64,000 bases of DNA from Paraspadella gotoi (taxonomy: Eukaryota > Animalia > Chaetognatha): the NCBI GenBank assembly GCA_051294375.1, contig CM119266.1:17230087-17294086 (forward strand), read 5' to 3'. Positions 31,501 through 40,500 of the stretch are shown here, piece by piece. The position numbers were made by a program, and so were the translations under genes. Position 1 is the stretch's first letter, and each line of letters opens with the position of its first letter. Under the pieces are notes generated by a model. It was not told the origin of the DNA and searched no databases. It saw only the letters and a program-made list of their open reading frames with translations.

Positions 31501-34500
31501 ATTAGAACGAGTCAGAACCGACACTATGGTGTCGTTGTCGTTGTCCTAAATTTGACAAAACCCGCATCAAAGTAAAGAAGAAAAGAGAAAATGATCGTAA
31601 AATGAGAAAAAAACAAACAACAACAAAAAAGAAGAGAATAAACAGGAAATAAATTTCGAGGACGACGACGACGACGACGACGACGACGACTACATAGAAT
31701 AAAATACTCAAAATATGAGGGTCAAATTTATTTTTACATTAAATTGTATTATATTTTGAATTTTAAATGGATTAATAAAAATAATTTAATTAATTTATTA
31801 CATTAAATTGTAAAAATTTTATGTTAGAATTAATATTTACTTGCGAACAAAAAAAATAATTGTCACGAAGAGATAATTTGAAACCAGTAGCTTTAAAAAA
31901 ATCTGCCATTCGGAAACCATTAGGAGTTTTTTTTAATCCTGAATTTTTTTTTTTTAAATCTAGGCCAATCACTCAAGTTTTAAAATCAAAGCAATATAGT
32001 AACTACAACGCACTATAACAATTACTACAATATTCGCTACAAGAAGCACATTAAAAAATCACTACAACAAGCAAAACCACAAACAAGAACAACAACCTAG
32101 AAAAGAATCACAAGGGAGCACCCGAGGAAAACATCGTAAATTATTCAAACAACTCGACTCAACGATTTTAAAGAGGTTTTCGGTCTTGAGAAAGAGAGAG
32201 AGAGAGAATGGCACCCTTCCAGCCAAGGTGGCACCTGCGCCAACATACAATAAAGGCGGCAAAAATCCTTTTCATCCAAAATCTTTTTTTTTTCGCTGTG
32301 GTCGCTTGGTCCTGGGAAATGAAGACAGAAAAGGGAAAAGTGAAGAGGAAGCAAGAAAGCTTGCCTGTAGATTCAAGACTGTTAGATGAACAGGAAGCAA
32401 GCTTTCCTATGGACTAAAGGCTGTTTGCTGGACAGGAAGCAAGCTTGACTCTGAAATAAGGAGCGTTTGTGTACAACAATCTTGTCTGCTATTCCGAAAT
32501 TTGATTCCACAGAAAATACGAGATTCAAAACAGACAGAGATTACTTTGTACGGAATGTAAGGAATGAGTTTTATGTTCGGAAATCTCACTAGTCCGTCTG
32601 CTATTACTAGATACTACTAGATACTACTAGATTTCAGTCGCAAATTTCGGTATTGATTTTTTTGATGTACCATCTCAGCATTAAATGCCTCGCAGTATCG
32701 CCTCTGTGCTTCTTTTGTCCTTTCCCAACCTCACAAAACAAAGAGGATAAAGTTGGCCAAAGCTGGAATTTAGAAAAATTAATTTTTTTTTAGGTTTAAA
32801 GATTGGGTTAGTGTTAGGGATTATGTAATACATTTTGAAAGGGATTAAATATTAAAATAACTGGGATAAAGGAACAGAGATGGAGCGCATTTGAAAAATA
32901 GAATAGAAAAAAAACAAATTGATGGTAAATCAGTGCTGGATCGTATGAGGCCGAATCCAATACGACCAAATCTCTTGACGCCAACTCAATTGGGGTCAAC
33001 TCGGTGTCGCCCAGAATTTCAAATTCTGCGGAGGAAGAATAAAGAAAAGAAAAATAAAGAAAAAGAAAATTGGATAAACAAAAAAGCGAGGATGAGGTCA
33101 TGAAAAATCTCGGAAAAAGGAAAATAAAAAAAAAAATATCATAATGTGGAAAATATTCAATTTTTTTGCCAGTTGGAAACTTCGATAGTCGTTGGTTTAT
33201 ATCAATTGACAGCTAATTGGTTTTTTGAGGGCAATAACTTTATTGAGTAATATTTTTATATTCCGGTTAAATGTAATGAAATGTCGTTTATAATTAGAAA
33301 TTCTTTCAGCATTTTTAATTTTATCAAATTTGCCTTTTGTTCATTTCTCTATCTCGTTCATTCGTCCATTTTTCGATTTCCAGGAGGAATTCTACGCATG
33401 CGCAGACGTTGAAATCCTTGACGGAATGACGGGATCCGGATTCGATCAGACAATAGGAAAGTCGTTCTGTCTCTGTCTCGCTCTCGCCTCGATCTATCTC
33501 TTCCTGTTTCTTTGAATTCGCATATATATTCAATACTTATATATTTATTGAATAAATGTATAATTTTATGTTGGTTGTACCAATTTCAATTAGTCGTAAT
33601 TCCCCACCCCCCAAAAAAACTAGGCGATCGTCAATCCGTCTTTTCCTACGACGTCGATTTGTCTACATCGAAATCAAAACAAAATAAAGTCGAAACTTAT
33701 TACGACTACGATTACGTCGACGATGACGCCAATTACGTCAACCGTCACGCTCTCGACGACCTTTTTCGAGACGCCATTTTTCTCGCGGATCGGATTCAAC
33801 CTTTGGAAACGAACGATGTTTTTTACTACGACTATTTTGACGACGACGAAGATTATTCAAAGTCGAAAGAGAAGAAAAAACATAAAAAAACAAAAGAGAG
33901 AGCGAAGAAGATGAAACAGAAAAACACAAAAGGGAAAACGAAGGAGAAAAAACGGAGAAAAAACAAAAGAGCGATTGACGACTACGACGACGACGATATT
34001 TTCGAGACGAGATTCAACGAAGATAAAAGACACGAAATTCGCGTCACCGGAAACAAGTTGGATGAGAAAACAAAAGACGAGAAAAAAGAAGAGAATAACA
34101 GAAAAGAGTTGAAGTTCGACGACGGCAGATGGCGACCGGAAGGTAGGAGAGTGGAAAATTCTTGTTTGAGATTTAAAAGGTTATTGAATGTTTATTAATT
34201 GACAAGAATGTTAAATTAAATGATTGTAATATAAAATTATTTAATTAGATTTAATGTAATTAATAATTAAATAAAAAAATTTATTAATAATTTTTAAAAT
34301 ATTTTAACCAAATAGATTATCATTTCTAATTAATATAATAAAATTAATTAAAATTAATTAAGCCATCAAGAAAACAACCAATCAATCAAATTTTCAGAGC
34401 ACATGGGTCCATGGTACAAGAATAAGCGAGAGATGGATGTGAGAAAATCAAGAGACAAAAATCGACGTCACACCAAGAGAGACGAATTACATCCGGGAGG

Positions 34501-37500: not shown

Positions 37501-40500
37501 ATAGGCTGGGAGAAATGATGGAGAAGATGATGGAGAAGATGAAGAGATGGTGATGGAGAAGATTAAGGAATGGCGATGGATAAGATGAATGATGGAGAAG
37601 ATGATTGAGAAGATGAATTTGATGGAGTAGATAATTGAAAATTTCAAAGTTTAGGCAATTGTCTCTTTCTTTCTAAGGGAAGAATTATGGAGGATTTAAT
37701 ATAATGTATTATTATTTATTAATTGTTTTAGAAATAAGGTGATATAATCTAAAACTTTACTTTCGAAACATGACAGTATGTTATTTACCAATGGCAATAC
37801 TAATAATGTATGGCGGCAGTTATTACACAAAACCTTCCTCTCTCTCTTTATAAATCTAGGGGTGTCAAATTTTCTTTTTAGTTTGATGAAAGGTTTTGCA
37901 TTATATTTATTTATATATAATTAAATTTGTAAATATATCTTGAACAAAATACGCTGATAAACGCATCGAACGCATGCTGAAATAGAACGAACAAACGATA
38001 TGAAAATTAAGGTAATTATATACATTCAAACAAGGTTAAAAACGAAAAAAGTTAGCAAAATATTTTGATGATAAGCTGAATGAAATCATAGTCACAAGAA
38101 GAAAACCAGACAAGGAAACAAATTCCACAAGCTGAGATAGATAAAATAGCATCCAACAAAAAGCAAACTTACACGTGGAGCAAAAGACATTAGGCTAATG
38201 AAAGGATATCGTGCAAATCACCTTTTCAATGTCGAATCTTGTGGGGTTAAAACTAAGAGGTAGTGAGGGGGAGTTGATTTTCGTTGGATTAATTGATGTA
38301 TTAACTGATTGATTAATTGATGGATTAACTGATTGATCGCCTAAAATTGATCGACAGTAGATTAGAATATAATAAGTTTAAGGAATAAAGTGGGACAGTG
38401 ACTAAAAAGCAAAAGTGACGTAACTAATACTCTCTCTTTCTCTCTCCCTCTCTCACTTTAACTTACCTGATCGTCAAGAGGTAAGTCACAGAAAGCAGGA
38501 ATGTATTTCGCCCATTCGACTAAAACCAAGAGCTGCTGCTTCATAGATTCGCAGATGTCGGCCACCGTCGCTGTCTTTCTGTCTGCAGATTCCGGACCCG
38601 CGTTCATCTACAGATGATTTAGAAATGAAAAATTTAAAGATGGAATATTGAGAAAGGAATGCAAATAATTTGAAAGAATATGATAAACATTTAAACTAGA
38701 GAGCATTTAAAACCTAAATGAGACAGACTGACTCAGACTCAGACATACCGACAGTCCAACTAATCGTCAATTTATTTTAAAACAAGAAAGTTTAAGGTCG
38801 TTTATTCTGTAAAGTATTATACTTTTGTAATTTTTTTTTTGGCTAAAAATCATTGCCTTGATATTTGTAACAAATTTTTCCGGATAGATTAAATATAAAT
38901 AGGAGACAATTTTTTTTTGGGGGGGGGGAAATCCTTTATTTAATTTCCCAAATGTTTTTTTATAAACTCCTCTAATTTCGTAAGTTTATTTTAATTTCAT
39001 TTTCCCTCAATAGTGCTCTTGTCCGCGTCGTCGTCGGAATTCGTATATTTTATTTTGATTGTTTGTCCTTATATGTTTATTCTTTTTGATGTCATTTTGT
39101 TCAAACAAAAGATCACAGTGAAGAGGTTCTTTTCGTACTTAAGTTCGATTTTCTTTTCATTTATTCTATTGACATTTTTCTTCTTTCAATTTTTATGTAA
39201 AAAAAAAAAAATCCTGATTCCACGGAAAAAAATTTTTTTTTCTCTTTGATTTCATTTTAGTCAAATTAATTTAATTTCATCGCTCTTTGACTGTTTCATT
39301 TCGCTTTAAACTAATTGTTATCGTTATAGCTCTCACCTTAGCCAATCCATATACATATATGTATATATACAGTTATACACTGTATATTGTATACTGTATA
39401 TTATACAGTAAGGCGTAGTGAAAGTTACATACGAAAATTCTAAAAGTCAATTATGAATAACATACCATCAGTGAACATTAATTTGTAAAAAAAAGTAATT
39501 TTATGCTTTTTAATTTTCGCAGTAGGCTATATTTATATATAGTACTATCCTTATAAAATCGAAAAATTTCAAAATAGGCTTTTCTTAATTTTGATTGCAG
39601 ATTTGAATTCCTCGTCAAAAGTTGATAAAAGAAAATGTAATTCATTTTTAAAAATTCTTTCATTAAGTGGGTTAAAAATTAAAAAAACTATATTTATTAT
39701 ATAAAAAGTTAATTTTCAGCTTAAAATATAGCTTTTTCTAACTTTTGACCCACTTAATGAAGGAATTTTTCAAAAAGAGTTATATTTCTTTTTATCAACT
39801 TTTTATGACGAAACCAAATCTGCAAAAAAATATTAGAAAAAACTGTTTTGAAATTTTAACATTTATTGGTTTAGTACTAGTATAAATATGGCCTACTGCA
39901 TAAATTGTAAAATTTATTATAAATTTTTTTATTATATAAATGTTCATTAGTATAATGTTGTTCGTTCTTCACTTTTAGAATTTTAATTAAAGTTAAAGTT
40001 AGAAATTTTACTACGCTTTATTATACAGTAAGGCGGGTTAAATTTGAACCATTTTTATCATTAGAAGTTCTGTCATATAAAATTCATTTGTCCATCATAT
40101 ACTTAATCAATATTTACTATCACTTTTATAACTAGTGAAGCACAGTATAACATTGAAGTATTTAAATATTTATAAATGCATAGGCAATTAAAATAAATTT
40201 TTTTAAAAAAATTATTTTTTAAGAACGGATTCAGATAGCCCAAAAAAAGTATAAAATATAATGCGTTTTTCAATATTTATAAATATTTCGATGATAAGTG
40301 GGTCAAATAAGCGAGAACGCCTAAAAATCATCATCATCATCATACCATAATTTTTTATATTTTTGCTAATTTTAACCAATAAAACAAAAAAATCTGGAAT
40401 TCTTGTAATAATATTTTTTATTTATTTTTTCAAGCTCTACCGAATCCGTTTTTAAAAATTCTGAATTTGAATTATAAAATTTTCATGATTTATAGTAATA

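Follow-up and report, generated by a model that had tools for sequence, protein, structure and literature searches.

An AA15 lytic polysaccharide monooxygenase fused to a repeat-bearing tail with dibasic sites in the chaetognath Paraspadella gotoi

The window analysed here is a stretch of 64,000 nucleotides (nt) from the chaetognath Paraspadella gotoi (assembly GCA_051294375.1, contig CM119266.1, positions 17,230,087 to 17,294,086 of the forward strand; positions below are those of the window). It consists of intron-rich eukaryotic DNA, with about 24-48% GC per kb, and carries animal-type genes (nuclear receptor, EGF, zinc-finger). On its plus strand, a gene of 13 exons (23640-37553) gives, in the spliced model, a single open frame of 683 amino acids (aa). 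The encoded protein starts with a signal peptide, continues with a lytic polysaccharide monooxygenase (LPMO) domain of family AA15 and ends with a tail of 457 aa (aa 227-683, 33624-37553). An earlier note, made from the sequence alone, had proposed such a fusion, with a tail of about 460 aa, and had read the product as a convertase-processed polyprotein releasing the enzyme together with repeat peptides. The fusion stands: it is real and it is expressed as a fusion. The features of the gene are collected in Table 1.

The transcript evidence comes from a single run, X1 (Logan contigs, presumed RNA). Because X1 also covers some intron DNA, its depth is uninformative on isoform ratios. Joints are listed in X1 for 9 of the 12 introns (introns 3 and 5-12), with GT-AG or GA-AG borders. 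Seven of them, from 33453>33621 to 36572>36700, lie on one contig of 1387 letters, with a common depth of 12.2. The match table gives three pieces for this contig, starting at contig letter 237, which corresponds to position 33621. The 236 letters upstream are made of exon 4, three shared letters and 70 letters of exon 5; therefore, the exons encoding Trp184, Glu203 and Phe205 belong to the same molecule as the tail. The joint of intron 4 is missing from this list, in which one joint was lost at a repeat, and the link between exons 4 and 5 is supported by this sequence match. Exons 12 and 13 are joined by a second X1 record, which ends behind the AATAAA of the 3′ untranslated region (UTR), and exon 1 is found with no differences in a 209-letter X1 contig that stops one base past the donor. 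The splices of introns 1 and 2, for which X1 gives no joint, were deduced, those of exon 2 from GT-AG sites, phase and alignment. Finally, the frame across 36575-36701 is kept only by removing an intron of 127 nt. The possibility that the tail is a separate gene was rejected: it has neither a start codon nor a signal peptide of its own, and the contig joins the LPMO exons to it. An assembly chimera was likewise rejected, since the exons of a nuclear receptor gene on the minus strand lie on both sides of it in the right order. Termination of the LPMO near 33456, the case that the earlier note had set against its own reading, fails for the transcript seen; it may hold for a second isoform, discussed below. 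As a side observation, intron 12 opens with a tandem copy of the end of exon 12 (36878-36915), which creates a second donor-like site.

Table 1. Exons and other features of the LPMO-tail gene (window positions; residue numbers refer to the 683-aa precursor)
Feature	Position	Strand	Evidence
Exon 1: start codon, signal peptide aa 1-22 (ends Gly-Ala-Pro), His23 (23706), Tyr46	23640..23832	+	5MSZ match, PF03067 fragment below cut-off, X1 contig
Exon 2: LPMO domain, CGICGD motif	24153..24265	+	splice inferred from GT-AG sites, phase, alignment
Exon 3: Ala109, His111 (second brace His)	30787..30923	+	alignment; joint to exon 4 in X1
Exon 4: Trp184; basic loop KGKRKR between Cys186 and Cys195; Met199	31078..31240	+	alignment, X1
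Exon 5: Glu203, axial Phe205, end of catalytic domain, short Gly/Ser linker	33384..33456	+	alignment, X1
Intron 5: non-canonical GA..AG (AG/GAAAGT)	33457..33623	+	X1 joint 33453>33621, 4 ambiguous letters, depth 12.2
Exon 6: predicted helix flanked by two acidic Tyr clusters; Lys-rich block; KNKR (aa 342); acidic peptide; predicted hairpin turn with EDKR (aa 362)	33624..34142	+	spliced model, structure prediction
Exon 7: KNKR (410), HTKR (427), first KR-DE-x-HPG module	34398..34506	+	X1, spliced model
Exon 8: phase 2-2, six 9-aa repeats	34733..34939	+	X1, spliced model
Exon 9: phase 2-2, two repeats around QDKR (524), HPG modules	35148..35258	+	X1, spliced model
Exon 10: phase 2-2, 27-nt micro-exon, exactly one repeat	36353..36379	+	X1, spliced model
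Exon 11: phase 2-2, one repeat, QGKR (568), sole possible amidation signal	36500..36574	+	X1, spliced model
Exon 12: SEPR repeats, Ser run, Tyr/Gly stretch, MRKR (631)	36702..36877	+	X1, spliced model
Exon 13, coding part: DFKR (653), heptad helix aa 655-683, stop	37405..37553	+	X1, spliced model
3′ UTR, AATAAA at 37920	37554..37954	+	X1 record covering 37404-37954

The enzyme part belongs to AA15 by its sequence. Exon 1 matches TdAA15A (PDB 5MSZ) with an E-value of 1.1e-7; alone against Pfam, it gives a PF03067 fragment below the cut-off (E 0.016). The whole catalytic domain is 46-55% identical to those of 18 full-length relatives (PF03067 proteins). The active-site residues were mapped to TdAA15A by way of a bridging protein (P0012) and an alignment of these 18 relatives. 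In this alignment, the brace residues His1 and His91 correspond to His23 and His111, Ala89 to Ala109, the axial Tyr/Phe184 to Phe205, and the aromatic residues 24 and 166 to Tyr46 and Trp184; Glu203 is also retained. The roles of these residues are described, and an axial Phe is tied to chitin-type members (PMC5823890, PMC9156745). Judging from Phe205 and Trp184, chitin would be the substrate, and the copper enzyme is probably chitin-active. The protein shares its signal peptide, the His brace, the Ala and Glu and the aromatic surface residues with known AA15 LPMOs (TdAA15A, TdAA15B); it departs from them in the length of its tail (457 aa against 73-144 aa in 17 relatives), in a Pro preceding His1 and in the loss of one conserved Cys. 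The domain holds ten Cys, and Met199 replaces a Cys found in 18 of 18 relatives; the pairing of Cys186 with Cys195 could still be possible. In a tree of 19 domains, the gene stands on a long unresolved branch and is not placed in either insect group I or group II. Group I proteins have a tail of ~120 aa with two 6-Cys repeats and those of group II a C-terminal transmembrane span (PMC9156745), whereas the present tail has no Cys, its long form has no hydrophobic span and the gene falls outside the clade of proteins with such a span. To our knowledge, animal LPMOs outside insects have barely been studied.

Long tails are ordinary in AA15. Disordered C-terminal regions (dCTRs), tails of at least 30 aa that contain a long disordered stretch and lack any known module, occur in 32% of the family and reach over 1000 aa; they are typically Ser/Thr-rich (S/T/P/G/A about half), Cys-rich in AA15, and have a mean charged fraction of 0.13-0.18 (PMC8615602). 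Like such proteins, the present one continues beyond its catalytic domain as a long, neutral polyampholyte of low complexity, which matches no known family and in which ordered and putatively disordered parts alternate. What is not ordinary is the composition of this tail, together with its repeats and KR sites: the charged fraction is 0.40, at the reported maximum, the net charge is neutral, Cys is absent, and the tail is poor in Ser/Thr/Pro/Ala (S/T/P/G/A 0.26). Exon-built Trp/Tyr repeats and KR sites further set it apart from dCTRs; the terms "repeat", "furin", "Kex2" and "proteoly" are absent from the main text of PMC8615602. Composition and low predicted local distance difference test (pLDDT) values fit disorder, and five tail exons have no family match at E<0.03. 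Along the tail, several blocks described in the earlier note were recovered: two acidic Tyr clusters (aa 252-264 and 294-303), a Lys block (aa 307-342), the array of 9-aa repeats, and a terminal helix with a clean a/d heptad (aa 655-683), a predicted coiled coil. In the whole protein, 12 Tyr stand in acidic context, 11 of them in the tail. SEPR repeats and a Ser run precede this helix. Structure prediction for exon 6 gives one helix and one hairpin, with a pLDDT of 55. Exon 13 has a weak SARAH match in Pfam (E 0.031, below the cut-off), which was set aside as a generic helix.

The 9-aa repeats were announced as about ten; ten are present, against 0.04 expected, and none of 20000 shuffles reaches this number. 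Among the 45 repeat pairs, the proportion of synonymous differences (pS) is 0.83 and that of non-synonymous ones (pN) 0.23 (pN/pS 0.28), the repeats having been chosen by amino-acid likeness, which lowers pN. The copies at aa 437 and 506, which open exons 8 and 9, have 8 of 8 residues identical, with six silent changes and no coding one. This points to constraint on the repeat at the protein level. Exons 8-11 all share one phase and exon 10 is exactly one repeat long; thus, the array grew by exon duplication. The repeats have no individual dibasic flanks, and the ten fall into two KR-bounded blocks. An AlphaFold model of the repeats from a single sequence shows strands on either side of two Asn-Gly turns, with a pLDDT of 50; strand pairing might, as a weak suggestion of this model, align successive Trp residues. 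A fold search with it gave 0 of 42 matches at E<=0.001.

No homologs of the tail were found with single-exon queries, which are weak for low-complexity sequence. None of 10 candidates was retained for exon 8 among longer proteins, and none of 171 for exon 6 (lengths 94-301 only). A phmmer search with exon 8 in 1.84 billion representatives gave 11 matches, judged on inspection (10 looked up) to be unrelated periodic or compositional ones. The ESM Atlas gave no match for exons 8 and 6, and a degenerate repeat pattern has no match in metagenome contigs. A search of Rfam gave 0 matches. Consistent with the earlier note, the searches with tail exons matched no known AA15 appendage, and by its sequence the gene is an AA15 with an undescribed tail. 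The parts of the literature searched, which took in few subscription journals, hold no description of an LPMO as a dibasic-processed polyprotein. Among 413 candidate stretches, related loci amount to three short contigs, which match exon 1 only and do not extend to a tail. Two proteins from short contigs, P0001 and P0002, match exon 1 at 85% and 79%, with a similarity that ends at the same exon boundary and a Ser before the first His; they are likely orthologs in related animals.

All seven KR sites named beforehand (KNKR, EDKR, KNKR, HTKR, QDKR, QGKR and MRKR, with the P1 Arg at aa 342, 362, 410, 427, 524, 568 and 631) are present, and three more were found: DFKR (653), a terminal MKR (682) and one KR within the Lys block. 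These ten KR compare with 4.5 expected in the tail (p 0.009; p 0.0065 with local shuffling), and the eight beyond the Lys block with 2.7 (p 0.002). The excess is specific, RK, RR and KK being at or below expectation (10 KR against 4 RK), and it is not seen in the pooled tails of 17 relatives (6 against 4.2 expected). Where the KR-(A)DE-x-HPG module is duplicated, KR is retained, and the heptad comes just after the last internal KR. Gly precedes KR in 1 of 10 cases, a single GKR. KR-specific sites suit convertases of the PC1/PC2 type. Accompanied by a signal peptide, this excess of KR in exposed sequence gives, to a moderate degree, the signature of a convertase-processed polyprotein, and it lends moderate support to PC1/PC2/Kex2-like rather than furin processing.

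The reading that we tentatively favour is that of a secreted precursor, which a convertase would cut at several KR. The products, a copper enzyme probably active on chitin, two blocks of aromatic repeats and a helix predicted to form a coiled coil, would act together in a chitinous matrix. This reading builds on the gene structure, the fusion on one contig, the intact brace residues, the selection on the repeats and the KR excess. The first likely cut would follow aa 342, so that the enzyme (23-342) would keep the acidic-Tyr and Lys blocks; further cuts would release short peptides and two blocks of repeats (97 and 44 aa), the heptad being the last piece. The repeats could fold as β-hairpins with Asn-Gly turns, their Trp and Tyr aligned into a flat face for polysaccharide, and the end helix may gather precursors before being cut off at aa 653. 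Of the polyprotein proposed earlier, the fusion, the repeats and the specific KR excess hold, but what would be released is two multi-repeat blocks and not single repeat peptides, and furin consensus sites are lacking. The closest functional analogue is Pif, in which cleavage at a dibasic site separates a chitin-binding part from a charged one (PMC11291548); this gives a precedent for the logic of a processed matrix precursor. Like Pif/BMSP shell-matrix proteins, the present one would be a single secreted precursor that dibasic cutting divides into an N-terminal part directed to chitin and a low-complexity part of strong charge; Pif, however, has VWA and chitin-binding domains, a single cut (RMKR) and no enzyme, and the analogy is functional, with no homology implied. 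About a third of AA15 proteins carry a tail, and this one has defined candidate cut sites, a selected 9-aa repeat and a terminal heptad. If it is processed as proposed, oxidative chitin cleavage would be tied to the deposition of matrix peptides, and the gene would provide a new short motif for binding polysaccharide and an example of a choice between anchored and secreted LPMO made at a non-canonical splice site.

Several points weigh against the processed-precursor reading. No R-x-K/R-R furin site occurs in tail and domain (0.7 expected). With four dibasic types tested, the KR excess is moderate, and p becomes 0.024 when one duplicated site is discounted. One of three control open reading frames (ORFs), a zinc-finger one, also shows an excess (3 KR against 0.76, p 0.031), and the LPMO domain itself contains three KR. 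Cleavage at EDKR (362) would break up a predicted hairpin. The repeat model has a low pLDDT and no fold match, and the choice of repeats by likeness affects the measure of selection. To these are added the Pro before His23 and better-scoring signal cleavage sites upstream, considered below. Moreover, the data are sequences from one species and one run.

Next to the processed precursor ranks the possibility, rather unlikely, that the tail stays attached: the LPMO would be tethered through a long disordered polyampholyte to aromatic repeats serving as a binding module and oligomerised by the end helix, the KR being incidental. The abundance and length of dCTRs in AA15 (PMC8615602) and the lack of a furin consensus fit this arrangement, and duplicated motifs can inflate KR counts. 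It accounts poorly, however, for an excess that depends on the order of the two residues and persists with local shuffling, and for a composition unlike that of the described dCTR class. An LPMO with an assembly-building C-terminal region is known in entomopoxvirus fusolin (AA10), where this region builds a higher-order assembly (PMC8615602); fusolin differs in being a viral AA10 that forms crystalline spindles, without a KR-punctuated repeat tail.

Activity of the enzyme depends on its N terminus, since copper binding needs a free N-terminal His (PMC12537917). The residue before His23 is Pro, which is found in 0 of 26 relatives and may hinder activation. Among 25 relatives caught by pattern, this residue is Gly in 21, Ser in three and Ala in one, and it is Gly in the 26th by its printed sequence. 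The X1 contig has the same letters in the Pro-His23 region. With a von Heijne matrix, the cleavage site at His23 scores 4.5, and two sites upstream score 9.8 and 9.5. Given this Pro and the higher-scoring upstream sites, LPMO activity is likely rather than settled. This raises the improbable alternative that the enzyme is switched off or needs trimming, signal peptidase cutting upstream and leaving 3-5 residues before His23, so that the protein would serve as a structural or binding matrix protein. The Pro, the advantage of about 5 of the upstream sites and the conserved Cys turned into Met would agree with it. Nevertheless, His23, His111, Ala109, Glu203, Phe205, Tyr46, Trp184 and ten Cys are all kept, and the score of the His site lies within the range of the relatives (3.4-10.6), in which the matrix picked this site in 19 of 24 cases and missed it in 5 of 24.

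The junction between LPMO and tail is itself peculiar. The GA donor AG/GAAAGT is the sole reading that has an AG acceptor. The GT located four bases downstream was rejected as the splice site, as it causes a frameshift and differs from the observed joint. GA donors have AG before and A at +3, and most human cases are alternatively spliced (PMC5714493); AG/GAAAGT fits this pattern. Read-through of the donor would add 19 residues, with a Gly-Ser-Gly site, a spacer and a 16-aa hydrophobic end, up to a stop at 33513-33515; an AATAAA follows at 33551, 36 bases past this stop, and the short product would have 245 aa. Such an end, resembling that of glycosylphosphatidylinositol (GPI)-anchored proteins, is found in one of the 12 introns, at 0 of 255 donor-like sites and at 79 of 18172 random positions, of which 12 also have AATAAA, by a criterion set after the sequence was seen. 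No transcript of a short isoform was seen in X1. A short GPI-anchored isoform produced by read-through of intron 5 is possible; if it is real, a cryptic donor within a former last exon may be how the gene acquired its tail. Two other features of this intron may be mentioned. The reading frame of the tail is open across the whole of intron 5, without Met (33422-34198, plus strand). A 12-base element with similar flanks is shared by introns 5 and 12 (33573 and 37176); it draws many unrelated X1 contigs and is probably a short dispersed repeat.

A more far-reaching proposal, which we regard as doubtful, is that the weak GA donor switches between a short GPI-anchored LPMO and a convertase-cut LPMO polyprotein with a new Trp/Tyr β-hairpin chitin-binding repeat and a coiled coil. 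This would then be the first case of an LPMO released along with matrix peptides of its own, and an LPMO used for building, not merely degrading, a chitin structure. Quite improbable is that the short GPI-anchored LPMO is the main product and the long form a secondary splice from a cryptic GA donor: only the weak-donor intron yields a hydrophobic C terminus with AATAAA, right behind the catalytic domain, and GPI-anchored AA15 are known (PMC8615602), but the X1 contig runs unbroken across the junction at its depth of 12.2, the tail, whose repeats are under selection, possesses neither its own start codon nor its own signal peptide, the criterion was set post hoc and CT-rich introns encode hydrophobic residues by chance. 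The least probable reading, a neuropeptide- or hormone-like precursor carried on the enzyme and giving sulfated or amidated signalling products, would suit PC1/PC2-type KR sites, the Tyr in acidic context and the one GKR, but the repeats lack individual dibasic bounds and Gly-amidation signals, there is no family match, and repeats that are not released singly argue against it.

The surroundings of the gene show nesting. The entire LPMO gene (23640-37954, plus strand) lies antisense inside one intron of the nuclear receptor gene (21661-47992, minus strand), whose zf-C4 exons are at 47025-47649 and ligand-binding exons at 38470-38607 and 21661-22016; from its motifs, we take it to be HNF4-like. 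Intron 2 of the LPMO gene contains in turn two intronless C2H2 zinc-finger ORFs (25163-26713, 516 aa, and 27645-29150, 501 aa; plus strand), so that the nesting reaches three levels; their exact sequences are not in the protein collection searched. Also antisense within the nuclear receptor gene, a secreted-looking gene (about 41290-46800, plus strand) has, by eye, a VWA-like start followed by many EGF repeats. Further on, there are near-duplicate stretches (48198-48854 and 53058-53648 on the minus strand; 49130-50039 and 51854-52904), which take in the first exon of the nuclear receptor, an exon rich in His, and an N gap lies near 49446; these stretches represent either a local duplication or an uncollapsed haplotype.

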